A stretch of 64,000 bases of DNA from Flectonema sp. DT1601 (GCA_964019425.1 OZ025785.1:62001-126000); one strand, 5' to 3'; positions 28,117-50,734 are shown, counted from the stretch's first letter. Translations and numbers: made by a program. The notes: generated by a model not told the origin, from the letters alone.

Positions 28117-30819
28117 TTAGTTGAAGTTATTATTTAGGAAATTCCTTTTAACAACATCACTGCAATCTTCCAATCCCTTAACATTTCTCATAGTTGTAGA
28201 TAATTTCTCATTCAAGAATTCACGTCCTATTGAAGTCAGTTTCTTCAAACCGGAAACATCGATGGAGGTGAGGGACTCACAGTGACTAATAAAGTCATAG
28301 CCAACACTCGTAACTTCACTCAAGGAAGACAAATCCACGCTAGTCAGAGACTTCGAATAATACAAGAATCCATTTCCTATTTTACTCAGCTTCTTCAAAC
28401 CGGAAACATCGATGGAGGTGAGGGACTCACAGTTTCTAATAAATTTATTGCCAACACTCGTTACTTCACTCAGACACGATAGATTAACGTGTGTCAGAGA
28501 ATCTGAGTATTGCAAGAATCCATCTCCTATTTGAGTCAGCTTCTTCAAACCGGAAACATCGATGGAGGTGAGGGATTCACAGTTACTAATAAAGTAATCG
28601 CCAACACTCGTAACTTCACTCAAGCAAGACAAATCCACACTAGTCAGACACTTTAAATTAAACAAGAATAAGCTTCCTATTTTACTCAGCTTCTTCAAAC
28701 CGGAAACATCGATGGAGGTGAGGGACTCACAGTTTCTAACAAAGTCATCGCCAACACTCGTTACTTCACTCAAGGAAGACAAATCCACGCTAGTCAGAGA
28801 CTTTGAATTATGCAAGAATCTATTTGGTATTTTAGTCAGTTTCTTCAAACCGGAAACATCGATGGAGGTGAGGGACACACAGCCTCTAATAAAGTAATTG
28901 CCAACACTAAGTACTTCACTCAGACAGGATAAATTAACGTGAGTCAGAGAACTTGAGAATTCCAAGAATCCACTTCCAATTTTACTCAGCTTCTTCAAAC
29001 CGGAAACATCGATGGAGGTGAGAGACTCACAGTCACTAATAAAGTCATCGCCAACACTCGTTACTTCACACAAGGAAGACAAATCCACGCTAGTCAGAGA
29101 CTTTGAATTATGCAAGAATCTATTTGGTATTTTAGTCAGTTTCTTCAAACCGGAAACATCGATGGAGGTGAGGGACACACAGCCTCTAATAAAGTAATTG
29201 CCAACACTAAGTACTTCACTCAGACAGGATAAATTAACGTGAGTCAGAGAACTTGAGAATTCCAAGAATCCACTTCCAATTTTACTCAGCTTCTTCAAAC
29301 CGGAAACATCGATGGAGGTGAGAGACTCACAGTCACTAATAAAGTCATCGCCAACACTCGTTACTTCACACAAGGAAGACAAATCCACACTAGTCAGACA
29401 CTTTAAATTAAACAAGAATAAGCTTCCTATTTTACTCAGCTTCTTCAAACCGGAAACATCGATGGAGGTGAGAGACTCACAGTGACTAATAAATTGATCG
29501 CCAACACTCGTTACTTCACACAAGGAAGACAAGTCCACGCTAGTCAGAGAACTTGAGAATCCCAAGAATCCATTTCCTATTTCAGTCAACTTTTGAAAAT
29601 CTGAAACATCGATGGAGGTGAGGGACTCACAGTTACTAATAAAGTCATCGCCAACACTCGTTACTTCACACAAGGAAGACAAATCCACGCTAGTCAGAGA
29701 ACTTGAGAATCCCAAGAATCCATTTCCTATTTCAGTCAACTTTTGAAAATCTGAAACATCGATGGAGGTGAGGGACTCACAGTTACTAATAAAGTCATCG
29801 CCAACACTCGTTACTTTACTCAGACAGGATAAATCCACGTGAGTCAGAGACTTCAAGTTATTCAAGAACTTGCTGGAGATGGCCGTCACATTGTGAAAAG
29901 AAGTGAAATCGATTGACGTCAGCGAGTCACAACTGTCTGACAGGAACTCTTGCTCAAATGCAGTGCAACGGCTGCAGTTGGTGAATGACAACCGACGGAT
30001 GCAAGACGGAAGCATCTTAACACAATCACTAGAAAGGGTGCCTTCATCGTCGATATATTCTGAGGCATCGAAGACACACAACATGTCCGGATTTTGTGCG
30101 AACAAAACGTCAATTCGAGTACGAAGATGTGAAGTTTTCAACTCCTCCGCAGTCACAACACGTTCATACCGAGGCCATTTGTATGTTCTTTTCACAGTAC
30201 CCCAGTTGTTCGAATCTTCCAGCTCACGGAGGATCTCGGCACCCCATGAGGTGTTGTCAAATTGGGATTTGACTTCTTCCTTCGACGAGTCGGAGAGTCT
30301 CGGCCAGTCCAGCAGCAGAAAGAGTTCTTTCCTGAGTTGGGCTGGGACACCCTCTTCTGTTTCACCCATGCCCAAGTAACCAATTTGAAGTGTGTTGAAA
30401 TACTCATCCTCATTCAGCAGCCGAGGGAAGCAGGTGGACGAGAATACATTCCTCAGGTCATCTTCGACCAACTCCAACTTCCCGTCCCCCTTGAGATCAG
30501 CTTTAACAAACCCGATATCGGCACACTTCATGTCAGGATGCAAGGAAAGGGTTCCCAGTAATCGCGAGCTTCCTTCCACCAGCTTCGCCGACTCCTTCTC
30601 CCTCGCCACCCGGTGTACTTCCTTGTACGTCGTCAATTCAGTCGCAACCTCAGCATCCGTCATTCCAACCATGATCTCCTCCGACGATCTGAGAACTTCT
30701 GAAAAGCTGTCCATCAGCGCCCCCGACTCCTCCTTCCGACTCACCACTTCCACGAGCAGCTTCGCCATGAACCTCTGATGGCTCCTCAAAACAGAGGACA
30801 GGGAATCGACAGTTGCCAT
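28117..30819 (-). CDS. LRR family copy 1: conserved ~300-aa N-terminal domain + 23 BspA-type 25-aa LRRs (900 aa)
   Basis: Alternating units LTSVDLSSLSEVTSVGxxFIxxCES / LTSIDVSGLKKLTxIGxxFLxxSxS. No signal peptide or TM segment. Contains a near-exact internal 300-bp duplication (about 28745-29345). Confidence 0.9.
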   Translation of the reverse strand: MATVDSLSSVLRSHQRFMAKLLVEVVSRKEESGALMDSFSEVLRSSEEIMVGMTDAEVATELTTYKEVHRVAREKESAKLVEGSSRLLGTLSLHPDMKCADIGFVKADLKGDGKLELVEDDLRNVFSSTCFPRLLNEDEYFNTLQIGYLGMGETEEGVPAQLRKELFLLLDWPRLSDSSKEEVKSQFDNTSWGAEILRELEDSNNWGTVKRTYKWPRYERVVTAEELKTSHLRTRIDVLFAQNPDMLCVFDASEYIDDEGTLSSDCVKMLPSCIRRLSFTNCSRCTAFEQEFLSDSCDSLTSIDFTSFHNVTAISSKFLNNLKSLTHVDLSCLSKVTSVGDDFISNCESLTSIDVSDFQKLTEIGNGFLGFSSSLTSVDLSSLCEVTSVGDDFISNCESLTSIDVSDFQKLTEIGNGFLGFSSSLTSVDLSSLCEVTSVGDQFISHCESLTSIDVSGLKKLSKIGSLFLFNLKCLTSVDLSSLCEVTSVGDDFISDCESLTSIDVSGLKKLSKIGSGFLEFSSSLTHVNLSCLSEVLSVGNYFIRGCVSLTSIDVSGLKKLTKIPNRFLHNSKSLTSVDLSSLCEVTSVGDDFISDCESLTSIDVSGLKKLSKIGSGFLEFSSSLTHVNLSCLSEVLSVGNYFIRGCVSLTSIDVSGLKKLTKIPNRFLHNSKSLTSVDLSSLSEVTSVGDDFVRNCESLTSIDVSGLKKLSKIGSLFLFNLKCLTSVDLSCLSEVTSVGDYFISNCESLTSIDVSGLKKLTQIGDGFLQYSDSLTHVNLSCLSEVTSVGNKFIRNCESLTSIDVSGLKKLSKIGNGFLYYSKSLTSVDLSSLSEVTSVGYDFISHCESLTSIDVSGLKKLTSIGREFLNEKLSTTMRNVKGLEDCSDVVKRNFLNNNFN

Positions 30820-30890
30820 TATTTTTAAACTGGATGAGTTTCTGGTGATGAAGAATTAATTCAAAGGATACGTAACTTCAATTCAAGAAC
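30820..30890 (-). promoter_or_regulatory. Conserved 5' leader of the LRR genes, probable trans-splice acceptor region
   Basis: ttgaattgaagttacgtatcctttgaattaattcttcatcaccAGaaactcatccAGtttaaaaataATG is nearly identical upstream of all seven copies (also about 34354, 38701, 41405, 43752, 48162 and 50735). The function is inferred. Confidence 0.5.
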
Positions 30891-32384
30891 GTAATTCACA
30901 TGATAACTGACACCAGAGAACAATCATCGCTACTCACTATGACTGCGGAATTAATTAATTTAAATACTTGTATTGCGTGTACTTCATGGAGGGGTGAAAC
31001 TTTCACAATGTAAAAACAATAACAACTTTAGGTATTAATACAAAAACTAATATCAAAATATTTTTTTTCTTTTTTTTCGACTGAATAGTTTAGTTTAGTT
31101 TAGTTAGCAAAATACAAACTGATGACTACGAGGGGTCTGGGTAGCCCGCATCAGTAAGGACCCAATCGCGAAGATTGTAGTTTCATAGTATTGAATAAAA
31201 TATTTGCAATTGTTAATGAAGAAAAAAAGTTCGTTTGGAAAAAAAAAAAAAACACAAAAAGGGAAATATAATTAGTTGTCCTTTCAGAAGAATCTGGTCA
31301 ATAAAATAGTTGTCGAATCTGGTAATTAAAACCACGTACTATCAGTTTCAAGTTAGACGGGGCAACGGTGGGGGTGAAACTTTGACAATGTAGTTTGCAT
31401 CATTAATTTTAGTATAGAAAAGGTGGAATAAGAGATAGAGATAAGTAAAAAGAAAAGTATTCATTTCCACAGTTTCCTAACATCAAAAGGGTAATAGAAT
31501 ACGTAGTTTCAGGAGCCTTAATCTTATACTACTTGTCCCTTTTTATGCCTTCATCAGTAAGACTTCATTCTATGTTGAAGTTGCTATCGTTCTAAGATAA
31601 GAATCCATCGGAGCTCGCCAGGATAGGGATAGCAATACTGATCGAAAGGGAGTCTAAGATCTTTGTGCCTTTAAGAATGTCACGGATGATCATGGATTCA
31701 AATGAGACTAGTGCAACAATAAAGTGAGTCATCCTTATTTTCACTTTGTGTATAATAAGTGCTGCGGCTGTTCCAGGATAAATCGAAATCCGATAAAATT
31801 AAGATATCTTTCTCAGGACCATTCCCCTTACCCAGCCCTCTTCAGTAAAGAGAGCAAGGGTTAGTTAGATTATGAGATTCCGCGATGAACGGATTTATGG
31901 ATGTGCAGGCTTCCAAAAATGTTTGAAAATCAGCGTGTTGCTTGTCTCTTACATTGGCTATAACATCTGCCAAACCCGTGTCTTGAGTTTCTAGATGATG
32001 TCTGATAAAGTCAACTAAAGCACCACATTGAAGTACAGCTGATACTAATCAAAGAACATGAGGTCTGCATCTTGCGGTAACTTCCAATACGATAACCACC
32101 AGCTTCAGGTGATGAAGTGTTAGACTCTACAAACAGACAGTCATTCTCAGTTCCCCAATCCTTCCAGTCTCCGTAGTATTTATTCGTGTCTGGGTTGCAA
32201 AACTTTGATAGCAGCTGGTCAAAATGTGTGCATTAATACAACTCTTATAAATCATCCAGAAAAAACTTATCGAGAATCCTCCATCTTCTTTTTATTTCAA
32301 GTTTTCCATACACCATGTTATTTATAAATACCGTATATCACAATGTTTCATTATTTAATCAATTACTAAATATCCTGTTAACGA

Positions 32385-32642
32385 TTCCAAACATACACCA
32401 ATCCTTTAAACAATTCTTACTTAGTTGTTTTGTATCCAGCAAGAATCCATTTCTAATTTCAGTCAGCTTCTGAAAACTGCAAACATCGATGGAGGTGAGG
32501 GACTCACAGTGACTAATAAAGCAACACTCGTAACTTCACTCAAGGAAGACAAGTCCACCCTTGTCTGAGACCTTGAATTACGCAAGAATCCATTTGCTAT
32601 TTTAGTGAGATTCCGAAAACCTGAAACATCGATGGAGGTGAG
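32385..32642 (-). pseudogene. Orphan LRR cassette (about 3 repeats plus a degraded C-terminal cap)
   Basis: Has two catcgatggaggtgag cores and ctcgtaacttcactcaaggaagac, with small deletions. There is no N-terminal domain, and it ends abruptly at 32642. Confidence 0.8.
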
Positions 32643-32844
32643 CGAGGAACAGTTCCTTCATCTACCTTGTCAAAGTGTCACTGTTGGGTAAGGGTTGTAA
32701 TTGTATTGGAGAAGTCAAACACAACCTTTAACCATCCAGTTCAGGACTTTGGTGTTTTCTTCTTTTTCACTTTTGCTTACACCCCCGAAAAGATATTAAC
32801 ACCCCAGTAAAGGAATATAATTACTTACTAATGGCTCAAGGTAA

Positions 32845-34353
32845 TTATATCCGATTGTTTCGAAACCGCTCCTTCAAAATCATTCCAACGACATCACTGC
32901 AATCTTCCAATCCCTTGAAATCTTTCTCAGTCAGTTTCGTTTTCCATAAGAATCCATTTCCTATTATAGTCAGCTTCTTCAAACCAGAAACATCGATGTA
33001 GGTGAGGGACTCACAGTTATCAATAAAGCAACGGCTAACGCTCGTAACTTCACTCAAGGAAGACAAATCCACGCTAGTCAGAGAATCCGATTTTTGCAAG
33101 AATCCATCCCCTATTTTAGTCAGCTTCTTCAAACCGGAAACATCGATGGAGGTGAGGGACTCACAGTTACTAATAAAGGAATTGCCAACACTCGTAATTT
33201 CACTCAAGGAAGACAAATCCACGCTAGTCAGAGACTTTAAATTATGCAAGAATCCATCTCCTATTTTAGTCAGCTTCTTCAAACCGGAAATATCGATAAA
33301 AATGAGAGATTCACAGTGACAAATAAAGTGATCGCCAATGCTAGTTACTTCACTCAGACAGGATAAATTAACGTGAGTCAGAGACTTCGAGTTATACAAG
33401 AACATATTGGGGATTGCCGTCACATTGTGGAAAGAAGTGAAATCAATTGACGTCAGCGAGTCACAACTGTCTGACAGGAACTCTTGCTCAAAAGCAGTGC
33501 AACGGCTGCAGTTGGTGAATGACAACCGACGGATAGAAGACGGAAGCATCTCAACACAATCACTAGAAAGGGTGCCTTCATCGTCGATATATTCTGAGGC
33601 ATCGAGGACACACAACATTTCGGGATTTTGTGTGAACAAAACGTCAATTCGAGTACGAAGATGTGAAGTTCTCAACTCCTCCGCAGTCACAACACGTTCA
33701 TACCGAGGCCATTTGTATGTTCTTTTCACAGTACCCCAGTTGTTCGAATCTTCCAGCTCACGGAGGATCTCGGCACCCCATGAGGTGTTGTCAAATTGGG
33801 ATTTGACTTCTTCCTTCGACGAGTGGGAGAGTCTCGGCCAGTCCAGCAGCAGGAAGAGTTCCTTCCTGAGTTGGGCTGGGACACCCTCCTCTGTTTCACC
33901 CATGCCCAAGTAACCAATTTGAAGTGTGTTGAAATACTCATCCTCGTTCAGCAGCCGAGGGAAGCAGGTGGACGAGAATACATTCCTCAGGTCATCTTCG
34001 ACCGGCTCCAACTTCCCGTCCCCCTTGAGATCAGCTTTAACAAACCCGAAATCGGCACACTTCATGTCAGGATGCAAGGAAAGGCTCCCCAGTAATCGCG
34101 AGCTTCCTTCCACCAACTTCGCCGACTCCTTCTCCCTCGCCACCCAGTGTACTTCCTTGTACGTCGTCAATTCAGTCGCAGCCTCAGCATCCGTCATTCC
34201 AACCATGATCTCCTCCGACGATCTGAGAACTTCTGAAAAGCTGTCCATCAGCGCCCCTGACTCCTCCTTCCGACTCACCATTTCCACGAGCAGCTTCGCC
34301 ATGAACCTCTGATGGCTCCTCAAAACAGAGGACAGGGAATCGACAGTTGCCAT
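32845..34353 (-). CDS. LRR family copy 2 (502 aa, 7 LRRs, C-terminal type B)
   Basis: Intact ORF, near-identical N-terminal domain, ends GMILKERFRNNRI. Confidence 0.9.
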   Translation of the reverse strand: MATVDSLSSVLRSHQRFMAKLLVEMVSRKEESGALMDSFSEVLRSSEEIMVGMTDAEAATELTTYKEVHWVAREKESAKLVEGSSRLLGSLSLHPDMKCADFGFVKADLKGDGKLEPVEDDLRNVFSSTCFPRLLNEDEYFNTLQIGYLGMGETEEGVPAQLRKELFLLLDWPRLSHSSKEEVKSQFDNTSWGAEILRELEDSNNWGTVKRTYKWPRYERVVTAEELRTSHLRTRIDVLFTQNPEMLCVLDASEYIDDEGTLSSDCVEMLPSSIRRLSFTNCSRCTAFEQEFLSDSCDSLTSIDFTSFHNVTAIPNMFLYNSKSLTHVNLSCLSEVTSIGDHFICHCESLIFIDISGLKKLTKIGDGFLHNLKSLTSVDLSSLSEITSVGNSFISNCESLTSIDVSGLKKLTKIGDGFLQKSDSLTSVDLSSLSEVTSVSRCFIDNCESLTYIDVSGLKKLTIIGNGFLWKTKLTEKDFKGLEDCSDVVGMILKERFRNNRI

Positions 34354-34586
34354 TTTTTTTAACTGGATGAGTTTCTGGTGATGAAGAATTAATTCAAAGG
34401 ATACGTAACTTCAATTGAACAACGTAATTCACATGATAACTGACACCAGAGAACAATCATCGCTACTCACTATGACTGCGGAATTAATTAATTTAAAGTA
34501 ACTATTAGGTTTCGAGAGTAATCCATATACCTCTTACCTCTATTCTATCATCATCAGTTATGGTGTGGAAGTAAGTCAATCAATTA

Positions 34587-36592: not shown

Positions 36593-36629
36593 GGTGTTGC
36601 CCCTCCTCTTCTTGGAATACCTTTGTCAG

Positions 36630-36900: not shown

Positions 36901-36921
36901 TGTGTCCTAATCTCTGATGTC

Positions 36922-38700
36922 TCAAAATATCTTCATACTCAATCGCACGGAAAAACTACAATCTTCCAATCCCTTGACATCTTTCTTAGTTAGTTTTGTA
37001 TTCCATAACAAATTACTTCCTGTTGTAGTCACTTTCCGAAACCCGGAAACATCAATTGAGGTAAGAGACTCACAGTTACTAATAAAGTTATTGCCAACAC
37101 TCGTAACTTCACTCAAGGAAGACAAATCCACGCTAGTCAGAGACTTTGAGTATTGCAAGAATCCATCTCCTATTTCAGTCAGCTTCATACCGGAAACATT
37201 GATGGAGGTTAGGGACTCACAGTCACTAATAAAGTAATTGCCAACACTCGTAACTTCACTCAAGGAAGACAAATCCACTCTAGTCAGAGACTCCGATTTT
37301 CGCAAGAATCCATTTCCTATTTTACTCAGCTTCTTCAAACCGCAAACATCGATGGAGGTGAGGGACTCACAGTGACTAATAAAGTAATTGCCAACACTCG
37401 TAACTTCACTCAAGGAAGACAAACCCACGCTAGTCAGAGACTTTGAATTATGCAAGAACCCATATCCTATTATAGTCAGCTTCTTCAAACCGGAAATATC
37501 GATGGAGGTGAGGGACTCACAGTGACTAATAAAGTAATTGCCAACACTCGTTACTTTCCTCAAGGAAGACAAATCCACGCTAGTCAGAGACTCCGATTTT
37601 TGCAAGAATCCATTTCCTATTTTAGTCAGCTTCTTCAAACCAGAAATATTGATGGAGGTGAGGGACTCACAGTTAATAATAAAGTGATCGTCAATGCTCG
37701 TTACTTTACTCAGACCGGATAGATTAACGTGAGTCAGAGACTGCAAGTTGTTCAAGAACTTGCTGGGGATGGCCGTCACATTGTGAAAAGAAGTGAAATC
37801 GATTGACGTCAGCGAGTCACAACTGTCTGACAGAAACTCTTGCTCAAAAGCAGTGCAACGGCCGCAGTTGGTGAATGACAACCGACGGATAGAAGACGGA
37901 AGCATCTCAATACAATCACTAGAAAGGGTGCCTTCATCGTCGATATATTCTGAGGCATCGAAGACACACAACATGTCGGGATTTTGTGTGAACAAAATGT
38001 CAATTCGAGTACGAAAATGTGAAGTTTTCAACTCCTCCGCAGTCACAAGTCCAGGCCTCTTGTATGTTCTTTTCATAGTACCCCAGTTGTTCGAATCTTC
38101 CAGCTCACGGAGGATCTCGGCACCCCATGAGGTGTTGTCAAATTGGGATTTGACTTCTTCCTTCGACGAGTCTGAGAGTCTCGGCCAGTCCAGCAGCAGA
38201 AAGAGTTCCTTCCTGAGTTGGGCTGGGACACCCTCTTCTGTTTCACCCATGCCCAAGTAACCAGTTTGAAGTGTGTTGAAATACTCATCCTCGTTCAGCA
38301 GCCGAGGGAAGCAGGTGGACGAGAATACATTCCTCAGGTCATCTTCGACCAACTCCAACTTCCCCTCCCCCTTGAGATCAGCTTTAACAAACCCGATATC
38401 GGCACACTTCATGTCAGGATGCAAGGAAAGGGTTCCCAGTAATCGCGAGCTTCCTTCCACCAACTTCGCCGACTCCTTCTCCCTCGCCACCCAGTGTACT
38501 TCCTTGTACGTCGTCAATTCAGTCGCAGCCTCAGCATCCGTCATTCCAACCATGATCTCCTCCGACGATCTGAGAACTTCTGAAAAGCTGTCCATCAGCG
38601 CCCCCGACTCCTCCTTCCGACTCACCATTTCCACGAGCAGCTTCGCCATGAACCTCTGATGGCTCCTCAAAACAGAGGACAGGGAATCGACAGTTGTCAT
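36922..38700 (-). CDS. LRR family copy 3 (592 aa, 11 LRRs; last residues replaced by foreign sequence)
   Basis: True start is ATG 38700 (MTTVDSLSS) by homology to the other copies. Homology stops after KGLEDCS at about 36955. Confidence 0.85.
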   Translation of the reverse strand: MTTVDSLSSVLRSHQRFMAKLLVEMVSRKEESGALMDSFSEVLRSSEEIMVGMTDAEAATELTTYKEVHWVAREKESAKLVEGSSRLLGTLSLHPDMKCADIGFVKADLKGEGKLELVEDDLRNVFSSTCFPRLLNEDEYFNTLQTGYLGMGETEEGVPAQLRKELFLLLDWPRLSDSSKEEVKSQFDNTSWGAEILRELEDSNNWGTMKRTYKRPGLVTAEELKTSHFRTRIDILFTQNPDMLCVFDASEYIDDEGTLSSDCIEMLPSSIRRLSFTNCGRCTAFEQEFLSDSCDSLTSIDFTSFHNVTAIPSKFLNNLQSLTHVNLSGLSKVTSIDDHFIINCESLTSINISGLKKLTKIGNGFLQKSESLTSVDLSSLRKVTSVGNYFISHCESLTSIDISGLKKLTIIGYGFLHNSKSLTSVGLSSLSEVTSVGNYFISHCESLTSIDVCGLKKLSKIGNGFLRKSESLTRVDLSSLSEVTSVGNYFISDCESLTSINVSGMKLTEIGDGFLQYSKSLTSVDLSSLSEVTSVGNNFISNCESLTSIDVSGFRKVTTTGSNLLWNTKLTKKDVKGLEDCSFSVRLSMKIF

Positions 38701-39919: not shown

Positions 39920-41404
39920 TCAAAACCGCTCCTTTAAAATCATTCCAACGACATCACTGCAATCTTCCAATCCCTTGAAATCTTTCTCAGTCAGTTTCGT
40001 TTTCCATAAGAATCCATTTCCTATTATAGTCAGCTTCTTCAAACCAGAAACATCGATGTAGGTGAGGGACTCACAGTTACCAATAAAGCAACGGCTAACG
40101 CTCGTAACTTCACTCAAGGAAGACAAATCCACGCTAGTAAGAGACTTTGAATTATGCAAGAATCCGTATCCTATTGTAGTCAGCTTCTTCAAACCGGAAA
40201 GATCGATGGAGGTGAGGGACTCACAGTTTCTAACAAACTCATTGCCAATGCTGGTTACTTCACTCAAGGAAGACAAATCCACGCTAGTCAGAGACCTTGT
40301 ACTATGCAAGAATCCATATCCTATTGTAGTCAACTTCTGAAAACCGGAAACATCGATGGAGGTGAGGGACTCACAGTTTTTACTAAAGTCATCGCCAACA
40401 CTCGTTACTTTACTCAGACCGGATAAATTAACGTGAGTCAGAGACTTCGAGTTATTCAAGAACTTGCTGGGGATGGCCGTCACATTGTGCAAAGAAGTGA
40501 AATCGATTGACGTCAGCGAGTCACAACTGTCTGACAGGAACTCTTGCTCAAATGCAGTGCAAAGGCTGCAGTTGGTGAATGACAACCGACGGATGCAAGA
40601 CGGAAGCATCTCAACACAATCACTAGAAAGGGTGCCTTCATCGTCGATATATTCTGAGGCATCGAAGACACACAACATGTCAGGATTTTGTGTGAACAAA
40701 ATGTCAATTCGAGTACGAAAATGTGAAGTTTTCAACTCCTCCGCAGTCACAAGTCCAGGCCTCTTGTATGTTCTTTTCACAGTACCCCAGTTGTTCGAAT
40801 CTTCCAGCTCACGGAGGATCTCGGCACCCCATGAGGTGTTGTCAAATTGGGATTTGACTTCTTCCTTCGAAGAGTTGGAGAGTCTCGGCCAGTCCAGCAG
40901 CAGAAAGAGTTCCTTCCTGAGTTGGGCTGGGACACCCTCTTCTGTTTCACCCATGCCCAAGTAACCAATTTGAAGTGTGTTGAAATACTCATCCTCGTTC
41001 AGCAGCCGAGGGAAGCAGGTGGACGAGAATACATTCCTCAGGTCATCTTCGACCAATTCCAACTTCCCGTCCCCCTTGAGATCAGCTTTAACAAACCCGA
41101 TATCGGCACACTTCATGTCAGGATGCAAGGAAAGGGTTCCCAGTAATCGCGAGCTTCCTTCCACCAGCTTCGTCGACTCCTTCTCCCTCGCCACCCGGTG
41201 TACTTCCTTGTACGTCGTCAATTCAGTCGCAGCCTCAGCATCCGTCATTCCAACCATGATCTCCTCCGACGATCTGAGAACTTCTGAAAAGCTGTCCATC
41301 AGCGCCCCCGACTCCTCCTTCCGACTCACCACTTCCACCAGCAGCTTCGCCATGAACCTCTGATGGCTCCTCAAAACAGAGGACAGGGAATCGACAGTTG
41401 CTAT
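39920..41404 (-). pseudogene. LRR family copy 4 (7 LRRs, type B); start codon ATG>ATA and a premature stop near the end
   Basis: ATA at 41404 where the paralogues have ATG. CGA>TGA at 39920 removes RNNRI. It could still be translated from Met18 (MAKLL). Confidence 0.75.
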
Positions 41405-41697: not shown

Positions 41698-41775
41698 GGC
41701 ATGATATTATGATTCACTATGAAAGAGTAAACAATGGACAACGGGATGTTCTTGTTGATAGACTCTGTGGGCTCC

Positions 41776-42330: not shown

Positions 42331-43751
42331 TTATTTAGGAAATTCTTTTTTAACAACAGCACTGCAACCTTCCAATCCCTTAACACCTTTTTTAGTTAGT
42401 TTTGTATCCATTAAGAATCCATATCCTATTGCAGTCACTTTCTTCAAACCGGAAACATCGATGGAGGTGAGGGACTCACAGTGACTAATAAATTGATCGC
42501 CAACACTCGTAACTTCACTCAAGGAAGACAAATCTACGCTAGTCAGACACTTTGAATTATGCAAGAACCAATTTCCTATTGTAGTCAGCTTCTTCAAACC
42601 TGAAACATCGATGGAGGTGAGGGACTCACAGTTACTAATAAAGCGATCGCCAACACTCGTAACTTCACTCAAGGAAGACAAATCCACGCTAGTCAGACAC
42701 TTTGAATTATGCAAGAAACAATTTCCTATTGTAGTCAGCTTCTTCAAACCTGAAACATCGATGGAGGTGAGGGACTCACAGTTACTAATAAAGTGATCGC
42801 CAACACTCGTAACTTCACTCAAGGAAGACAAATCCACGCTAGTCAGACACTTTGAAGTACTCAAGAAACAATTTCCTATTGTAGTCAGCTTCTTCAAACC
42901 GGAAACATCGATGGAGGTGAGGGACTCACAGTTTCTAACAAAGTCGTAGCCAATGCTGGTTACTTTACTCAGACAGGATAAATTAACGTGAGTCAGAGAC
43001 TTCAAGTTGTTCAAGAACTTGCTGGGGATGGCCGTCACATTGTGAAAAGAAGTGAAATCGATTGACGTCAGCGAGTCACAACCGTCTGACAGGAACTCTT
43101 GCTCAAATGCAGTGCAACGGCTGCAGTTGGTGAATGACAACCGACGGATAGAAGACGGAAGCATCTTAACACAATCACCAGAAAGGGTGCCTTCATCGTC
43201 GATATATTCTGAGGCATCGAGGACACACAACATGTCGGGATTTTGTGTGAACAAATTGTCAATTCGAGTACGAAGATGTGAAGTTCTCAACTCCTCCGCA
43301 GTCACAACACGTTCATACCTAGGCCATTTGTGGAGAAGGAGTCGGCGAAGTTGGTGGAAGGAAGCTCGCGATTACTGGGAACCCTTTCCTTGCATCCTGA
43401 CATGAAGTGTGCCGATTTCGGGTTTGTTAAAGCTGATCTCAAGGGGGACGGGAAGTTGGAGCCGGTCGAAGATGACCTGAGGAATGTATTCTCGTCCACC
43501 TGCTTCCCTCGGCTGCTGAACGAGGATGAGTATTTCGAGACAGTTCGAATTGGTTACTTGAGCCTGACTACTTCAGAGGATGGTGTCTCACCCCAACTCA
43601 GGAAGGAACTCTTCCTGTTGCTGGACTGGCCGAGACTCTCCTCCTCGGGGAAGGAAAAAGTAAAATCCGAATTTGACAACACCTCATGGGGTGCCGAGAT
43701 CCTCCGTGAGCTGGAAGATTCGAACAACTTGGGTACTGTGACAGTTGCCAT
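42331..43751 (-). pseudogene. LRR family copy 5 (9 LRRs), N-terminal domain disrupted by an inversion and a deletion
   Basis: The leader and ATG (43751, MATV) are intact, 43332-43740 is inverted, and about 200 bp (codons ~4-72) are missing. The LRR part 42331-43331 is open. Confidence 0.85.
43332..43740 (+). other. Inverted fragment of the LRR-family N-terminal domain (codons ~73-209)
   Basis: The plus strand reads EKESAKLVEGSSRLLG...ELEDSNNLGTV. This is the only piece of the family on the plus strand. Confidence 0.9.
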
Positions 43752-44595
43752 TATTTTTAAACTGGATGAGTTTCTGGTGATGAAGAATTAATTCAAAGGA
43801 TACGTAACTTCAATTCAAGAACGTAATTCACATGATAACTGACACCAGAGAACAATCATCGCTACTCACTATGACTGCGGAATTAATTAATTTAAATACT
43901 TGTATTGCGTGTACTTCATGGAGGGGTGAAACTTTCACAATGTAAAAACAATAACAACTTTAGGTATTAATACAAAAACTAATATCAAAGTATTCGATTG
44001 AATAGTTGTTAATAAAAGAAAAAGTTCGTTGTCTCATTGACCAGAAGACGTTGTCGAATCTGGTAATTCAGGGACCACGTACTATCAGGTTGAGAGTCCA
44101 ATCCGTTACAACTTACACTTAAATAAAATAAAAAGAACAAAACAGTTCGTATTACAGGACTAGTTAGTAGTACACTGCTAGCGGCGTACTCTTGCGTGGA
44201 GGGAGTTAATTGATTTCGAGTGAGCTCATATTGTGAAAACAAAAAGTTATAAAAACACAATTGTTCTGCTGTTCCATAAGCCACTTGCGGAATACGTAGT
44301 TTCAGGAGCCTTAATCTTATACTACTTGTCCCTCTTAGGTCTTCATCAGTAAGTTCTGACGGACTTCACTCCAGTTCTTCAGAATCAGACATTGACAAAT
44401 ATGATTTCGCCAAGACGGGCTGGTATATACTTGGTTTTGATCAGCTGAGTTCCATGTAATGTAAAAACAATAACAACTTTAGGTATTAAAACAAAAAGAA
44501 TCGGCACCTCACTAAATAATTCTCACACTTTGTTTTTCTTTGTGCGCAACCGGACCCCTTAATATTTAAACACTTCCCTAATTTCTTTTAGGAAC

Positions 44596-44814
44596 GCACG
44601 TCAACACCGCAACGGACCTCCACCAGAGTTTCCCCGGCTTCGTCCTATCCAGGCATAGTTCACCATCTTTCGGGTCCCAATAAGTGTACTTTACCTCAAA
44701 TCCTTTTCCAATAAATCGGGATCGGGCTGTGCTACACCCCCAGGGGTTGGCACATAAAGACCCTTTCAGTGCGGCTAATGGGTTTGACACCCTAAACCTT
44801 TGCACACGCGTTAG
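44596..44814 (-). rRNA. Isolated ~220-bp fragment of eukaryotic LSU (28S) rRNA, not a functional gene
   Basis: The minus strand contains GGGACCCGAAAGATGGTGAACTATGCCTG...GAAGCC..GGAAACTCTGGTGGAGG...TGACGTGC, the conserved core after the D3 region. No further rDNA is seen on either side. Confidence 0.85.
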
Positions 44815-45542
44815 CATATAAGATTGTTAGTCATATAATCCAACGTTACTGTATATTATGAGTGCTCTAGGGAGGGTAACTCACAGTAACAGAGGACCCA
44901 ATCCGTAGCCACATCCGAAGACTTGACATGGATTGTTGAAGTAGCATCGACTGAAAGATTAATAAATACCAATCTCCAGCTTTCCGCCTCGCAGCAGCTT
45001 ATTAAACTATCGAACTAAAATTAAACAAAACAAAAATAAAAATAAAAATAAAAATCAACAAAATTAAAACATGATAAAACAATTACTGATAAACTACTAA
45101 AGCACTCGGAGAGCATTAAATAATAACGCTAGGTTGGCAGCAGCCCTTATTTTTTGAATATATATCGCAAATTAAAATAAGATTGTAAAAACAAAAATAA
45201 CAATCAACAGAAAACGTTTTAGTATCTGTTAATGCAGAGAATGACTAAAGTTATCAGTTATACTCCTCCCAGCCATATGTTAGTTCGGAGGAGTCTTCAG
45301 ATAAAATACACCTTACAGTGAAAGTGGTTACGAAGAACTGAAATACCTATAAGAGACTACTTCTTAGAAGCCGCTAGGTAACCTCTACTGGTAGACACTA
45401 AGCGAGTTACCGAAGCTAGAATATGAGATTATTATAAAATAGTTCACTACATTGAAAAAAGAACAAGAAAAAAAAACACAACTGTTTCGGATGATCCATT
45501 TTACACTAGCGCTCGCCGTTGTTAACACTTTAGTTGAAGTTA

Positions 45543-48161
45543 TTATTTAGGAAATACTTTTTTAACAACAGCACTGCAACCTTCCAATCCCTTAACACTT
45601 TTCTTAGTTAGTTTTGTACCTATTAAGAATCCATATCCTATTGCAGTCACTTTCTTCAAACCGGTAATATCGATGGAGGCGAGGGACTCATTTTTAGTTA
45701 GTTTTGTTTCATACAAGAATCCATCTCCTATTTCAGTCACTTTCCTCAAACCGGAAACATCGATGTAGGTGAGGGACTCACAGTTACTAATAAAGACATC
45801 GCCAATACTCGTTACTTCACTAAAGGAAGACAAATCCACGCTAGTCAGAGACTTTGAATTACGCAAGAATCCACTTCCTATTTCAGTCAGCTTCTTCAAA
45901 CCGGAAACATCGATGGAGGTGAGGGACTCACAGAAACTAATAAAGTGATCGCCAACATTCGTAACTTCACTCAAGGAAGACAAATCCACGCTAGTCAGAG
46001 ACTTTGAATTACGCAAGAATCCACTTCCTATTTCAGTCAGCTTCTTCAAACCGGAAACATCGATGGAGGTGAGGGACTCACAGTAACCAATAAAGTGATC
46101 GCCAACACTCGTTACTTCACTCAAGGAAGACAAATCCACGCTAGTCAGAGACTTTGAACTATGCAAGAATCCACGTCCTATTTCAGTCAGCTTCTTCAAA
46201 CCGGAAACATCGATGGAGGTGAGGGACTCACAGTAACCAATAAAGTGATCGCCAATACTCGTTACTTCACTCAAGGAAGACAAATCCACGGTCAGAGACT
46301 TTGAACTATGCAAGAATCCACGTCCTATTTCAGTCAGCTTCTTCAAACCGGAAACATCGATGGAGGTGAGGGACTCACAGTAACCAATAAAGTGATCGCC
46401 AATACTCGTAACTTCACTCAAGGAAGACAAATCCACGCTAGTCAGAGACTTTGAATTATGCAAGAATCCATCTCCAATTTTAGTCAGCTTCTTCAAACCG
46501 GAAACATCGATGGAGGTGAGGGACTCACAGCGACTAATAAAGACATCGCCAATACTCGTAACTTCACTCAAGGAAGACAAATCCACGCTAGTCAGAGACT
46601 TTGAATTATTCAAGAATCCATTTCCTATTTCAGTCAGCTTCTTCAAACCGGAAACATCGATGGAGGTGAGAGACTCACAGTTATTAATAAAGTGATCGCC
46701 AACACTCGTAACTTCACTCAAGGAAGACAAATCCACGCTAGTCAGAGACTTTGAATTACGCAAGAATCCATTTCCTATTTCAGTCAGCTTCTTCAAACCG
46801 GAAACATCGATGGAGGTGAGGGACTCACAGTAACCAATAAAGTGATCGCCAATACTCGTAACTTCACTCAAGGAAGACAAATCCACGCTAGTCAGAGACT
46901 TTGAATAATGCAAGAATCCATATCCTATTTCAGTCAGCTTCTTCAAACCGGAAACATCGATGGAGGTGAGAGACTCACAGTTATTAATAAAGTGATCGCC
47001 AACACTCGTAACTTCACTCAAGGAAGACACATCCACGCTAGTCAGACACTTTGAGTATCGCAAGAATCCACTTCCTATTGCAGTCAGCTTCTGAAAACCG
47101 GAAACATCGATGGAGGTGAGGGACTTACAGTTACTAATAAAGTCATCGCCAACACTCGTTACTTCACTCAGACCGGATAAATTAACGTGAGTCAGAGACT
47201 TCGAGTTGTTCAAGAACTTGCTGGGGATGGCCGTCACATTGTGAAAAGTAGTGAAATCGATTGACGTCAGCGAGTCACAACTGTCTGACAGAAACTCTTG
47301 CTCAAAAGCAGTGCAACGGCTGCAGTTGGTGAATGACAACCGACGGATAGAAGACGGAAGCATCTCAACACAATCACTAGAAAGGGTGCCTTCATCGTCG
47401 ATATATTCTGAGGAATCGAAGACACACAACATGTCGGGATTTTGTGCGAACAAAATGTCAATTCGAGTACGAATATGTGAAGTTCTCAACTCCTCCGCAG
47501 TCACAACACGTTCAGGCCATTTGTATGTTCTTTTCACAGTACCCCAGTTGTTCGAATCTTCCAGCTCACGGAGGATCTCAGCACCCCATGAGGTGTTGTC
47601 AAATTGGGATTTGACTTCTTCCTTCGACGAGTGGGAGAGTCTCGGCCAGTCCAGCAGCAAGAAGAGTTCCTTCCTGAGTTGGGCTGAGACACCATCCTCT
47701 GTTTCACCCATGCCCAAGTAACCAATTCGAACTGTCTCGAAATACTCATCCTCGTTCAGCAGCCGAGGGAAGCAGGTGGACGAGAATACATTCCTCAGGT
47801 CATCTTCGACCAACTCCAACTTCCCGTCCCCCTTGAGATCAGCTTTAACAAACCCGATATCGTCACACTTCATGTCAGGATGCAAGGAAAGGGTTCCCAG
47901 TAATCGCGAGCTTCCTTCCACCAGCTTCGCCGACTCCTTCTCCCTCGCCACCCGGTGTACTTCCTTGTACGTCGTCAATTCAGTCACAGCCTCAGCATCC
48001 GTCATTCCAACCATGATCTCCTCCGACGATCTGAGAACGTCAGAAAAGCTGTCCATCAGCGCCCCCGACTCCTCCTTCCGACTCACCATTTCCACCAGCA
48101 GCTTCGCCATGAACCTCTGATGGCTCCTCAAAACAGAGGACAGGGAATCGATAGTTGTCAT
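45543..48161 (-). CDS. LRR family copy 6 (872 aa, 22 LRRs including a doubled C-terminal capping repeat)
   Basis: Intact ORF with one 3-nt in-frame deletion (LTVDL). It ends ETKLTKNES-LASIDI...GTKLTKKSVKGLEGCSAVVKKVFPK. Confidence 0.9.
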   Translation of the reverse strand: MTTIDSLSSVLRSHQRFMAKLLVEMVSRKEESGALMDSFSDVLRSSEEIMVGMTDAEAVTELTTYKEVHRVAREKESAKLVEGSSRLLGTLSLHPDMKCDDIGFVKADLKGDGKLELVEDDLRNVFSSTCFPRLLNEDEYFETVRIGYLGMGETEDGVSAQLRKELFLLLDWPRLSHSSKEEVKSQFDNTSWGAEILRELEDSNNWGTVKRTYKWPERVVTAEELRTSHIRTRIDILFAQNPDMLCVFDSSEYIDDEGTLSSDCVEMLPSSIRRLSFTNCSRCTAFEQEFLSDSCDSLTSIDFTTFHNVTAIPSKFLNNSKSLTHVNLSGLSEVTSVGDDFISNCKSLTSIDVSGFQKLTAIGSGFLRYSKCLTSVDVSSLSEVTSVGDHFINNCESLTSIDVSGLKKLTEIGYGFLHYSKSLTSVDLSSLSEVTSIGDHFIGYCESLTSIDVSGLKKLTEIGNGFLRNSKSLTSVDLSSLSEVTSVGDHFINNCESLTSIDVSGLKKLTEIGNGFLNNSKSLTSVDLSSLSEVTSIGDVFISRCESLTSIDVSGLKKLTKIGDGFLHNSKSLTSVDLSSLSEVTSIGDHFIGYCESLTSIDVSGLKKLTEIGRGFLHSSKSLTVDLSSLSEVTSIGDHFIGYCESLTSIDVSGLKKLTEIGRGFLHSSKSLTSVDLSSLSEVTSVGDHFIGYCESLTSIDVSGLKKLTEIGSGFLRNSKSLTSVDLSSLSEVTNVGDHFISFCESLTSIDVSGLKKLTEIGSGFLRNSKSLTSVDLSSFSEVTSIGDVFISNCESLTYIDVSGLRKVTEIGDGFLYETKLTKNESLASIDITGLKKVTAIGYGFLIGTKLTKKSVKGLEGCSAVVKKVFPK

Positions 48162-49231
48162 TATTTTTAAACTGGATGAGTTTCTGGTGATGAAGAATTA
48201 ATTCAAAGGATGCGTAACTTCAATTCAAGAACGTAATTCACATGATAACTGACACCAGAGAACAATCATCGCTACTCACTATGACTGCGGAATTAATTAA
48301 TTTAAATACTTGTATTGCGTGTACTTCATGGAGGGGTGAAACTTTCACAATGTAAAAACAATAACAACTTTAGGTATTAATACAAAAACTAATATCAAAG
48401 TATTCGATTGAATAGTTGTTAATAAAAGAAAAAGTTCGTTGTCTCATTGACCAGAAGACGTTGTCGAATCTGGTAATTCAGGGACCACGTACTATCAGGT
48501 TGAGAGTCCAATCCGTTACAACTTACACTTAAATAAAATAAAAAGAACAAAACAGTTCGTATTACAGGACTAGTTAGTAGTACACTGCTTTAATGTAAAA
48601 ACAATAACAGCTTTAGGTATTAAAACAAAAAGAATCGGCAGCTCACTAAATAATTCTCACACTGTGCGCAACCGGACCCCTTAATATGTAAACACTTCTC
48701 TAAATTCTTTTAGGAACGCACGTATTTCACTCTACCCCAGATATTTAAACACTACCCCAGTTCTTTCTTTTTTTTCATGACCTTACATATTTGCGTTCAA
48801 CCTTCCAAGCACGTCTCGAAGGTTCGTCAGCAGGATTCTCCTTCGACGATCCATTCGAATGTGAGATTTCGGAGAGTCACACGACAACAGGTCGGGTTAC
48901 ACCCGACTTGTTCCTGCAAATAGCTGAAATCAATTCCGTTTAAATAAATATGGTCTGCAACAAAATAATGGATTGAAAGGTTACTACTTTAGTACTGACG
49001 TCATTATTGATCTTCGGAATTGAATCTTAACGTCTTCTGATGTTGTCCAAGTTCAATTTATGTAATTTATCACCAACACTGAACACCAACAGAAGGGATT
49101 CAAATGTTTTATTAAAACTGACTGCTCTGAATTTCATTACAGACATCAGCCGTCTTCCTTAAGAAGAGGAAGTAAAAAGATATTAACACCCCAGTCAAGG
49201 AATATAATTACTTACTAATGGCTCAAGGTAA

Positions 49232-50734
49232 TTATATCCGATTGTTTCGAAACCGCTCCTTCAAAATCATTCCAACGACATCACTGCAATCTTCCAATCC
49301 CTTGAAATCTTTCTCAGTCAGTTTTGTATTCTCTAAGAAAGATCTCCCTATTGTAGTCACTTTTTGAAAACTGGAAATATCGATAGAGGTGAGGGACTCG
49401 CAGTTACTAATAAAGCAATCGCCAACACTCGTAACTTCACTCAGGGAAGACAAATCCACGCTAGTCAGAGAACTTGAGTATTGCAAGAATCCATCTCCTA
49501 TTTCAGTCAGCTTCTTCAAACCTGAAACATCGATGGAGGTGAGGGACTCACAGTTTCTAACAAACTCATTGCCAATGCTTGTTACTTCACTCAAGGAAGA
49601 CAAATCCACGCTAGTCAGAGACATTGAATTATGCAAGAATCTACTTCCTATTGTAGTCAGTTTCTTCAAACCTGACACATCGATGGAGGTGAGGGACTCA
49701 CAGTTATTAATAAAGTAATCGCCAACACTCGTTACTTCACTCAGACCGGATAAATTAACGTGAGTCAGAGACTTCGAGTTGTTCAAGAACGTGCTGGGGA
49801 TGGCCGTCACATTGTGAAAAGAAGTGAAATCGATTGACGTCAGCGAGTCACAACTATCTGACAGGAACTCTTGCTCAAAAGCAAAGCAACGGCTGCAGTT
49901 GGTGAATGACAACCGACGGAGAGAAGACGGAAGCATCTCAATACAATCACTAGAAAGGGTGCCTTCATCGTCGATATATTCTGAGGCATCGAGGACACAC
50001 AACATGTCGGGATTTAGTCCGAACAAAATGTCAATTCGAGTACGAAGATGTGAAGTTCTCAACTCCTCCGCAGTCACAACACGTTCAGACCATTTGTATG
50101 TTCTTTTCACAGTACCCCAGTTGTTCGAATCTTCCAGCTCACGGAGGATCTCAGCACCCCATGAGGTGTTGTCAAATTGGGATTTGACTTCTTCCTTCGA
50201 CGAGTGAGAGAGTCTTGGCCAGTCCAGCAGCAGGAAGAGTTCCTTCCTGAGTTGGGCTGGGACACCCTCTTCTGTTTCACCCATGCCCAAGTAACCAATT
50301 TGAAGTGTGTTGAAATACTCATCCTCGTTCAGCAGCCGAGGGAAGCAGGTGGACGAGAATACATTCCTCAGGTCATCTTCGACCAACTCCAACTTCCCGT
50401 CTCCCTTGAGATCAGCTTTAACAAACCCGATATCGGCACACTTCATGTCAGGATGCAAGGAAAGGGTTCCCAGTAATCGCGAGCTTCCTTCCACCAACTT
50501 CGCCGACTCCTTCTCCCTCGCCACCCGGTGTACTTCCTTGTACGTCGTCAATTCAGTCGCAGCCTCAGCATCCGTCATTCCAACCATGATCTCCTCCGAC
50601 GATCTGAGAACTTCTGAAAAGCTGTCCATCAGCGCCCCCGACTCCTCCTTCCAACTCACTACTTCCACCAGCAGCTTCGCCATGAACCTCTGATGGCTCC
50701 TCAAAACAGAGGACAGGGAATCGACAGTTGCCAT
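49232..50734 (-). CDS. LRR family copy 7 (500 aa, 7 LRRs, type B)
   Basis: Intact ORF with the same N-terminal domain, ends GMILKERFRNNRI. Confidence 0.9.
   Translation of the reverse strand: MATVDSLSSVLRSHQRFMAKLLVEVVSWKEESGALMDSFSEVLRSSEEIMVGMTDAEAATELTTYKEVHRVAREKESAKLVEGSSRLLGTLSLHPDMKCADIGFVKADLKGDGKLELVEDDLRNVFSSTCFPRLLNEDEYFNTLQIGYLGMGETEEGVPAQLRKELFLLLDWPRLSHSSKEEVKSQFDNTSWGAEILRELEDSNNWGTVKRTYKWSERVVTAEELRTSHLRTRIDILFGLNPDMLCVLDASEYIDDEGTLSSDCIEMLPSSLRRLSFTNCSRCFAFEQEFLSDSCDSLTSIDFTSFHNVTAIPSTFLNNSKSLTHVNLSGLSEVTSVGDYFINNCESLTSIDVSGLKKLTTIGSRFLHNSMSLTSVDLSSLSEVTSIGNEFVRNCESLTSIDVSGLKKLTEIGDGFLQYSSSLTSVDLSSLSEVTSVGDCFISNCESLTSIDISSFQKVTTIGRSFLENTKLTEKDFKGLEDCSDVVGMILKERFRNNRI

Follow-up and report, generated by a model that had tools for sequence, protein, structure and literature searches.

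A tandem array of seven leucine-rich repeat genes in Flectonema sp. DT1601, probably diversified by germline recombination and by selection on a few residues per repeat

The question raised by this locus is how related leucine-rich repeat (LRR) genes lying side by side came to carry anything from 7 to 23 repeats, and whether their repeats are shuffled as cassettes into a combinatorial repertoire loosely analogous to lamprey VLRs, as the original prediction proposed. The window, i.e., the whole 64-kb stretch of DNA that was analysed, comes from Flectonema sp. DT1601, a marine protist and likely a diplonemid. Seven related LRR genes lie in tandem on its minus strand between positions 28117 and 50734. 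Parsing of the ORFs and Tandem Repeats Finder bore out the predicted seven-copy array and its repeat counts, which for c1 to c7, as counted from the assembly, are 23, 7, 11, 7, 9, 21 plus a doubled cap, and 7 units. Counted units start with LT or LI, and the N-cap-like unit (IRRLSF...) that each copy carries in addition is left out. Tandem Repeats Finder reported a period of 150 in 7/7 genes, with copy numbers of 10.9, 3.0, 4.5, 3.0, 3.5, 9.7, and 2.7-3.0, respectively. When the N-terminal domain was searched with BLASTP against the window's ORFs of at least 120 aa, it retrieved the seven copies only.

Five of the seven copies are intact, one has lost its start ATG, and one is rearranged; there is also a relic 3' end. 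The intact copies, all on the minus strand, begin with c1 (28117..30819; 900 aa, 23 units), whose N-terminal domain occupies about 30001-30819 and whose LRR region occupies 28117-30000. The remaining four are c2 (32845..34353; 502 aa, 7 units), c3 (36922..38700; 592 aa from the conserved ATG, 11 units of which one is 24 aa), c6 (45543..48161; 872 aa, 21 units of which one is 24 aa, plus the doubled cap), and c7 (49232..50734; 500 aa, 7 units), the copy whose structure was modelled. The doubling of the c6 cap appears in Tandem Repeats Finder as a period of 90 at 45604-45780. The listed ORF of c3, with a TTG start, extends to 38841. These five long ORFs remain open over as many as 23 repeats, and the frame is preserved by both 3-nt deletions.

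The two damaged copies are c4 (39920..41404, minus strand, 7 units), in which the conserved start codon reads ATA (41402-41404) and the next in-frame ATG is codon 18, and c5. In c5, nt 1-12 of the CDS are kept, nt 13-218 are missing, and nt 219-628 are inverted. Its 3' part (42331..43315, minus strand) carries the last stretch of the N-terminal domain (roughly CDS nt 648 onwards) and 9 units; the inverted 410-bp piece of the N-terminal domain lies on the plus strand (43332..43741); and the start with its 5' flank (43740..44179, minus strand) is 99.3% identical to the c6 5' flank (48150-48589). Unless the assembly is in error here, c5 is a broken copy. The claim that all copies share a near-identical N-terminal domain is correct in that the domain is common to them, but it is not intact in c4 (ATA) or c5 (deletion and inversion). 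Downstream of the c2 stop, a frameshifted relic of an LRR-gene 3' end with the order B-A-cap-tail (32330..32660, minus strand) matches live-gene units at 75-92% identity, and it is the sole LRR sequence outside the genes. Given two damaged copies out of seven, the relic, and an N-terminal-domain pN/pS of 0.35-0.78 (pS 0.04-0.08), part of the array may be in decay.

By sequence, the array LRRs appear to belong to the BspA/TpLRR class. The family profile retrieved 4gt6 (3.6e-30), 4fs7 (4.3e-28), 4h09, and TpLRR 6mlx from the PDB; the LRR region of c7 alone matched 4gt6 (1.5e-10) and FBXL2 (6o60_C, 1e-8); and Foldseek with the whole c7 model retrieved TpLRR 6mlx at a target TM-score of 0.55. Of 15 alignment members scanned, 10 carry LRR_5 (PF13306), at a best E-value of 9.5e-52; among the other five are four N-terminal pieces without LRRs or nearly so. 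A Pfam scan of c1, c2, and c6 (E<=0.01) listed LRR_4, LRR_8, and LRR_EndoS and did not list LRR_5, while the precomputed domains for database copies of c7, c4, and c3 include PF13306. The BspA/TpLRR repeat is about 23 aa long with an IGxxAFxxC-type motif; the array unit is 25 aa, [VI]GxxF[IL]xx[CS]xS, and aligns to 4gt6 with gaps of about 2 residues per repeat (HMMER).

In the c7 model, a predicted helical N-terminal domain (residues 1-270) is followed by the LRR solenoid. For this domain of about 270 aa no Pfam family was found, Foldseek against the PDB and a search of BFVD each returned 0 matches at an E-value <=0.001 (weak poxvirus BTB-kelch rows in the latter were not relied on), and in the PDB profile search the N-terminal 254 profile positions drew one match only, at an E-value of 0.52. 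The best Z in a wide VIA-align search was 10.1, below the value of about 13 common for helical models, and its rows span residues 1-205, mostly the first four helices. The best Protein Atlas score, 0.87, comes with recognition below threshold and thus provides leads only. In line with the description of this domain as one of unrecognised fold, it is predicted to be helical, and neither Pfam nor the fold searches run gave a specific match. The maximum Kyte-Doolittle 19-residue mean is <=1.26 in the five copies scanned, with a charged, amphipathic N-terminus. We infer that the array proteins are cytosolic, because no signal peptide or membrane segment was seen; a receptor function would be a further step of inference.

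Within the repeats, a 42-nt core has 12 exact occurrences, and 38 if <=6 substitutions are allowed, always on the plus strand (0 on the minus strand) and mostly at a spacing of 150 bp; one of these 38 (at 32468) is extragenic, inside the relic. Conservation of this core even at synonymous sites was seen in internal B units, where codons 1-5 are each a single codon in 25/25 distinct units, but is not complete once cap units are included, as the core then shows some synonymous variation. The prediction that repeat number changes by A+B pairs of 150 bp agrees with the period of 150 in all seven genes, with an A-B-A-B tandem duplication of 300 bp in c1 (28798..29397, minus strand), where 29098-29397 and 28798-29097 are identical at 299/300 nt, and with the paralogue P0006, which corresponds to c7 plus four additional units. 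The same modules do recur in different genes, as had been noticed, e.g., IGNEFVRNCES in c4 and c7 and VSRCFI.NCES in c2 and c4.

How the units are related was assessed from nearest neighbours and from trees. With ties counted, 43/69 units overall have their nearest 75-nt neighbour within their own gene (c1 15/21, c6 16/18); identical unit pairs are numerous in c1 and c6, and the labels of these two genes cluster on the unit trees, with 0-2 of 500 shuffles as low. Grouping is also by position: on the unit tree, the B0 units form one clade (SH-aLRT 100), as do the first A units (99), and the 150-nt tree unites the first pairs (97/99) as well as the A+cap pairs from all seven genes (88/87). For the 7-unit genes c2, c4, and c7, the nearest unit is in another gene for 14 of 15 units; c4_04/c7_04 and c2_06/c4_06 are supported at 98 and 97 on the unit tree, and the c2 and c4 caps are joined at 100/99 on the 150-nt tree. 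Copy c4 is a chimera, its 5' LRR units being c7-like and its last A unit, cap, and 3' flank c2-like: on the two sides of the best breakpoint, near 40146/40147, informative sites split 45 v 24 (left) and 1 v 29 (right), and the maximum chi-square of 32.2 for the c2/c4/c7 triplet was reached in 0/10000 permutations. A {c2,c4,c7} clade is rejected by the N-terminal-domain data (p-AU 0.014) and {c3,c4} by the tail data (p-AU 0.012). The four-gamete test failed for 196 of 378 pairs of informative N-terminal-domain sites, and in a PHI-like test of this domain incompatible sites were not spatially clustered (2276/5000 permutations as low), so that conversion tracts there are not demonstrated. With the c4 chimera, modules are shared across genes to a degree that exceeds tree-like descent, as expected by the original prediction; first and last units group by position, and units of the long genes by recent duplication inside the gene. 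As for exchange through the conserved cores, modules were exchanged in c4, but the best-placed breakpoint is a B-to-A junction outside the 42-nt core.

Variation between units is concentrated at unit positions 17, 18, 21, and 22, and in B units also at 14 and 24, and is almost wholly non-synonymous there. The minimum numbers of non-synonymous and synonymous changes are 57:6 at hypervariable codons and 35:29 in the framework (Fisher 7e-6). When only the 34 closest unit pairs are compared, 50/97 codon differences fall inside the 10 codons (out of 50) classed as hypervariable (p 5e-12), and the corresponding ratios are 48:2 and 27:20 (Fisher 4.6e-6). Unit-position variability and substitution counts together confirm that variable codons are set within a conserved framework. 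The pN/pS of hypervariable codons, 4.95 in A units and 1.29 in B units, is biased upward because these codons were picked by their amino-acid variability. In 12 paralogues outside the window, variability is again highest at the same unit positions, a statement about variability only and not about selection. We also considered a diversity-generating retroelement target, and adenine-specific variation at the variable codons is absent (the number of alternative bases per site is 1.88 where the consensus base is A, 2.00 for G, 1.67 for C, and 1.20 for T).

The concave beta-strand x positions are the usual binding face of LRR proteins. They are nearly invariant in the array units, so the binding face proposed here would be an unusual one: the variable stripe, according to predicted secondary structure, sits in the loop before the next beta-strand, and we take this stripe as a candidate ligand-binding face.

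On balance, we favour the reading that this tandem LRR array was diversified by germline out-of-register homologous recombination, combined with diversifying selection that acts on a few residues in each repeat. Unequal crossing-over within and between copies would change LRR number in steps of A+B, gene conversion and recombination between copies would produce chimeric genes, and diversifying selection would drive change at a few residues of each repeat. The variable stripe, in the loop ahead of the following beta-strand, would bind ligands, and the N-terminal domain common to the copies would link binding to one downstream partner. If the proteins are indeed cytosolic, bind ligands through the stripe, and share this coupling, the array would therefore amount to a birth-and-death repertoire of intracellular binding proteins of differing specificities, with no NTPase domain and no somatic assembly. 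The evolutionary mechanism itself is ordinary, a familiar route for binding-protein families and not an antibody-like assembly.

Programmed assembly of the VLR type would have LRR cassettes copied somatically or clonally through the cores, so that the receptor differs per cell line. The lamprey VLR is an incomplete germline gene flanked by banks of cassettes, from which LRR modules are assembled somatically. The array resembles it in its conserved framework, its variable positions, and its varying number of modules, and conserved cores flanking variable codons, modules common to different genes, and one orphan LRR fragment (32330-32660) could be read in the same direction. However, the array copies are complete genes or wrecks, each with its own N-terminal domain or remains of one, first repeat, cap, and tail; their first units, and likewise their last, are homologous by position between genes; there are no flanking cassette banks, the orphan being a frameshifted gene end; Pfam searches of 16 larger window ORFs and 8 intergenic ORFs found no deaminase or recombinase family; and the N-terminal-domain pS of 0.04-0.08 fits germline paralogues. 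This part of the original prediction is not supported, and we give such assembly almost no credence. Artefacts of assembly in a repeat-rich locus, affecting repeat numbers or the c5 inversion, might be suspected from the near-identical blocks of 150-300 bp, but neighbouring units mostly differ (Tandem Repeats Finder matches of 82-95%), the ORFs are intact, the family is on record in contigs of 162-829 kb, and the paralogues on other contigs vary likewise, with 5-14 units across 12 proteins; we regard this explanation as very improbable.

Largely neutral decay, in which the family expands and contracts without any recognition role and its units vary simply where constraint is absent, would suit the two damaged copies, the relic, and the pN/pS of the N-terminal domain. 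It is hard to square with five long ORFs open through so many repeats, in-frame deletions, a 48:2 split above neutral expectation at the variable codons, and transcribed relatives in Flectonema neradi, and we consider it improbable. A substrate-adaptor family, whose N-terminal domain docks an enzyme complex (e.g., a ubiquitin ligase) while variable LRRs pick substrates in the manner of F-box/LRR proteins, strikes us as unlikely, if less so. The c7 LRR region matches FBXL2 almost as well as 4gt6, the array proteins share with FBXL2 cysteine-containing LRRs of about 25-26 aa and a predicted cytosolic location, and a constant N-terminal module with variable LRRs and no membrane signals would be in keeping with it, as would the poxvirus BTB-kelch rows of the viral fold library (E-values 0.08-0.95), which are not significant. 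Nevertheless, F-box, BTB, and BACK are absent from 15/15 alignment members at an E-value <=1, no such fold is among the best 50 matches listed in either PDB search, and the N-terminal domain is far larger than that of FBXL2 and unrelated to it in sequence.

Germline diversification, our preferred reading, has closer parallels elsewhere. Plant resistance-gene clusters consist of tandem paralogues with unequal crossing-over, chimeras, and an excess of non-synonymous change at a few positions of each repeat. The likeness to plant NLR clusters that had been suggested is apt here, and extends to LRR receptor-like protein loci, in tandem copies, LRR-number change, a chimeric gene (c4), and non-synonymous excess. 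The array differs in having neither a membrane anchor nor NB-ARC/NACHT, no such NTPase being found in the Pfam scan of c1, c2, and c6 or in 15/15 alignment members at an E-value <=1, and in that its variable positions are in the pre-strand loop and not at concave x residues. The TvBspA family of Trichomonas vaginalis, as described in its paper, forms clusters of up to 17 genes, with tandem and ectopic duplication and 98 pseudogenes, and is likewise compared there with plant resistance-gene clusters (PMC2843621). On that description it shares with the array the apparent LRR class (LRR_5 type), tandem paralogue clusters, variable LRR length, and some pseudogenes. In contrast to TvBspA, the array members carry the conserved N-terminal domain of about 270 aa without a Pfam family, a 25-aa unit in an A/B pair, and no membrane segment in the members scanned, and their host is likely a free-living marine diplonemid and not a parasite.

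Relatives of the family were found only among Flectonema neradi transcripts, i.e., transcriptome-derived proteins, and on other contigs. The N-terminal domain is <=41% identical to its Flectonema relatives, whereas the neighbouring housekeeping P4-ATPase shares 77% identity with that of Flectonema neradi. For the same P4-ATPase, identity is 52% with Diplonema ambulator and 51% with D. papillatum; its best hits are thus diplonemids, which puts the organism in this group and speaks against a kinetoplastid. One strand carries all 22 window ORFs with a length of 200 aa or more, in keeping with the unidirectional gene clusters reported for D. papillatum (PMC10161547). The main text of the D. papillatum genome paper does not mention 'LRR' (PMC10161547), and literature searches turned up no publication on host LRR families in diplonemids. 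At 56207-56983, 5.5 kb from the array, there is a separate NACHT ORF, and Pfam assigned 0 families to the 8 intergenic ORFs. Four sequencing runs contained only 7-10% of sampled words; they gave scattered Logan contigs, some 95-99% alike, which are uninformative on repeat numbers, expression, and strain.

Few marine heterotrophic protists are as abundant as the diplonemids, whose recognition of bacteria, viruses, and prey is almost unstudied. The locus provides a candidate recognition family, with fast-evolving, predicted intracellular LRRs and an unclassified N-terminal domain, and a clean natural case of LRR number shifting in fixed two-repeat steps. It is conceivable, though we hold it to be speculative and rather doubtful, that diplonemids of the Flectonema lineage use NTPase-less intracellular LRR receptors in which a four-helix-bundle N-terminal domain signals and the hypervariable stripe on the flank of the BspA-type solenoid, not the concave face, recognises shifting targets, e.g., intracellular bacteria, viruses, or molecules of prey. 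If true, this NTPase-less LRR repertoire would be an innate-recognition system of new architecture in abundant ocean protists.

Seven paralogous ORFs, c1 to c7, lie on the minus strand within 28117-50734 of the window, and each encodes leucine-rich repeats (LRRs) in which A-type units (LTSVDLSSLSEVTSVGxxFIxxCES) alternate with B-type units (LTSIDVSGLKKLTxIGxGFLxxSKS). In the assembled sequence, cutting the proteins wherever the LT.. unit start recurs gave 23 units for c1 (28117-30819, 900 aa), 7 for c2 (32845-34353, 502 aa), 11 for c3 (36922-38700, 592 aa counted from the conserved ATG), 7 for c4 (39920-41404), 9 for c5 (42331-43315, with rearranged pieces reaching to 44179), 21 and a doubled cap for c6 (45543-48161, 872 aa), and 7 for c7 (49232-50734, 500 aa), which agrees exactly with the counts of the original prediction. 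Its proposal that the genes differ in 150-bp steps also held, as Tandem Repeats Finder reported a period of 150 in all seven genes; the doubling of the c6 cap appeared as a period of 90 at 45604-45780. The 42-nt core quoted there has 12 exact occurrences, and 38 with at most 6 substitutions, all on a single strand. The near-identical N-terminal domain attributed to every copy is indeed shared across the array, but it is not intact throughout: c4 has ATA in place of the start ATG seen in the other copies, and c5 as assembled retains nt 1-12 of its CDS but not nt 13-218; nt 219-628 stand in inverted orientation at 43332-43741, and the gene continues from about nt 648. A relic gene end with a frameshift, made up of the last units and the tail, sits downstream of c2 at about 32330-32660.

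The idea that units are shuffled across genes stood only in part, since the per-repeat phylogeny recovered cross-gene pairs together with position-wise clades and within-gene clustering. In the tree of 75-nt units, the B0 units from all seven genes made up one clade with support 100, and a second clade, with support 99, comprised the first A units; the cross-gene pairs were c4_04/c7_04 (support 98) and c2_06/c4_06 (support 97; labels give gene and unit). Gene labels required 19 changes among A units and 18 among B units; the lowest possible number is 6, and shuffling gave means of 24.1 and 24.2. The 150-nt tree of A+B pairs, which resolves better, clustered the A+cap pairs of all seven genes (88/87) and the first pairs (97/99), contained starred within-gene clades in c1, c5 and c6, and required 20 gene-label changes versus a shuffled mean of 23.1. 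The nearest unit was in the same gene for 43 of the 69 units, chiefly in c1 and c6; for the 7-unit genes c2, c4 and c7 it lay elsewhere for 14 of 15 units, mostly at the matching position. Units 10, 14 and 20 of c1 are internal copies of a type that otherwise marks position 2, and c1 also contains a duplicated 300-bp block (299 of 300 nt identical). Judged from these sequence relationships, both ends of the LRR region retain old positional homology, and the interior of the long genes appears to be the product of recent out-of-register duplication, with some exchange between genes in addition.

One such exchange could be placed by aligning c2, c4 and c7 over their full length for a breakpoint test. 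To the left of about 40146, c4 agreed with c7 at 45 sites versus 24 with c2, and to the right with c7 at 1 site versus 29 with c2 (maximum chi-square 32.2, equalled in 0 of 10000 permutations); the 3' flank of c4 also resembles that of c2. This breakpoint falls at a B-to-A junction outside the quoted 42-nt core. The star-like shape of the N-terminal-domain tree (pS 0.037-0.076) is one of several further signs of reticulation. A {c2,c4,c7} clade was rejected by the N-terminal-domain data (p-AU 0.014) and {c3,c4} by the tail data (p-AU 0.012), and 196 of 378 pairs of informative sites in the N-terminal domain failed the four-gamete test, no spatial clustering of the incompatible sites being found there. 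The 5' flanks of c1, c5 and c6 (30820-31062, 43752-44179 and 48162-48589) are 99.2-99.8% identical over 243-440 bp, above the 96-97.6% of their coding N-terminal domains. The roughly 75 nt upstream of the ATG are conserved in all copies.

Variation among the units is concentrated at few residues. In both unit types entropy peaked at unit positions 17, 18, 21 and 22, to which B units add 14 and 24, and these were also the most variable positions in 12 paralogues outside the window. The beta-strand x positions 2, 3, 5 and 7 were almost invariant. At the variable codons the minimum changes number 57 non-synonymous and 6 synonymous; the framework has 35 and 29 (Fisher 7e-6). In a comparison of the 34 closest unit pairs, the 10 of 50 codons that are variable took 50 of the 97 codon differences, with ratios of 48:2 there versus 27:20 in the framework (Fisher 4.6e-6). 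The pN/pS values at the variable codons (4.95 and 1.29) are inflated because these codons were chosen by their variability; this bias weighs less on the synonymous counts and on the closest-pair test, though neither is immune to it. No adenine-specific variation was found.

All 22 window ORFs of at least 200 aa are on the minus strand with kilobase-scale spacers, and PMC10161547 describes long clusters of genes running in one direction in D. papillatum. A P4-ATPase (flippase) at 9554-12786 (minus strand), whose best relatives are diplonemid, is broken into two ORFs with about 180 nt between them, which points to an intron or a frameshift; the ORF at 10696-12786 is 77% identical to its counterpart in Flectonema neradi, 52% in Diplonema ambulator, 51% in D. 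papillatum and 48% in Rhynchopus euleeides. Together these features most probably place the window in a diplonemid nearest to Flectonema. Adjoining the array are a pentapeptide-repeat and WD40-repeat ORF (53572-56157, minus strand) and a NACHT ORF (56207-56983, minus strand), which may be a single NACHT-WD40 gene broken by a frameshift or intron. An ankyrin-repeat ORF (57084-59042, minus strand) has a weak NAD:arginine ADP-ribosyltransferase match (E-value 1.9e-4, below Pfam's cut-off), and the ORFs that follow it weakly match VWA and SecA_DEAD-like families. Short dispersed repeats, 92-98% identical and in varying order between genes, occupy the spacers (25247-25461 and 41769-41982; 27835-28116, 42024-42317 and 45295-45527; 41523-41700 and 51023-51201), and an 80-bp tandem repeat of 2.7 copies lies at 25871-26085. 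The c5-c6 spacer holds a 269-nt LSU rRNA-like fragment (44546-44814, minus strand; eukaryotic model positions 675-954, 94 bits), and the overlapping stretch 44457-44601 recurs upstream of c6 at 48591-48723 with 88% identity. The c2-c3 spacer (34000-36700) has a strong AT skew (-0.23), and its low-complexity minus-strand ORFs have no Pfam match.

When 5.8 billion proteins were searched by a word index for the N-terminal 300 residues, only 16 matched, every one with at least 88% identity; their contigs measure 162, 582, 464 and 35 kb. Scanning 1.84 billion representatives in full with HMMER yielded 15 proteins with E-values of 0.001 or less, 13 of them 27-42% identical. Because these relatives are Flectonema neradi transcriptome proteins and proteins from contigs of 350-829 kb, the family is transcribed in Flectonema and, as far as these protein searches see, lineage-restricted. 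Between the two organisms, identity reaches at most 41% in the N-terminal domain but stands at 77% in the neighbouring P4-ATPase, so that either the family evolves fast or the proteins compared do not represent orthologues. In 12 proteins of the same subfamily from outside the window, unit number ranges from 5 to 14; P0006, on the 162-kb contig already mentioned, is c7 with four additional units, and P0016 has four consecutive identical A+B pairs. The literature searched, including the main text of the D. papillatum genome paper, yielded no account of host LRR families from diplonemids; the single paper that mentions both diplonemids and LRRs deals with LRR proteins of bacterial endosymbionts.

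Pfam assigned only LRR families to c1, c2 and c6, and the N-terminal 280 residues had no match at an E-value of 1 or less. As for the distant relatives, 10 of the 15 alignment members matched LRR_5 (BspA type; best E-value 9.5e-52). The family profile matched solved BspA/TpLRR-class structures (4gt6, 3.6e-30; 4fs7, 4h09 and 6mlx) via the LRR part only, and the LRR region of c7 by itself matched 4gt6 (1.5e-10) and FBXL2 (1e-8). In the full c7 model (pLDDT 86.9; 92-97 across the LRRs), positions 3-5 of every unit form a beta-strand and positions 14-15 a bridge. The N-terminal-domain model (mean pLDDT 81.5) opens with four long helices (residues 4-92); a disordered loop and further short helices come next, and a small alpha/beta module precedes the LRRs. 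Foldseek retrieved no PDB or viral match to it at an E-value of 0.001 or less, and VIA-align gave only generic helical matches (best Z 10.1), chiefly to the first four helices. We describe the modelled domain as unclassified and do not claim a new fold. In P0001, from outside the window, the pre-LRR module (a partial N-terminal domain) sits between two LRR blocks, and the Flectonema protein P0024 carries the module three times with a short LRR block after each, so that the segment at about residues 215-275 behaves as a module of its own. In the 5 copies scanned the Kyte-Doolittle 19-residue mean is at most 1.26, and the N-terminal end is charged; the proteins are predicted to be cytosolic.

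The original prediction loosely likened the array to lamprey VLRs or plant NLR clusters. A VLR-like system does not fit, because every gene is complete or the wreck of a complete gene, the end units are positional homologues and there is no cassette bank. The data fit instead the ordinary kinds of germline change for which LRR gene clusters are known: unequal crossing-over and slippage in a 150-bp register would shift LRR number, chimeras and conversion would arise among neighbouring copies, some copies would die, and selection would favour change at a few exposed residues. From their architecture, we infer that the array proteins act as binders inside the cell and have a signalling or docking domain in common; a role as substrate adaptors is a live rival to this.
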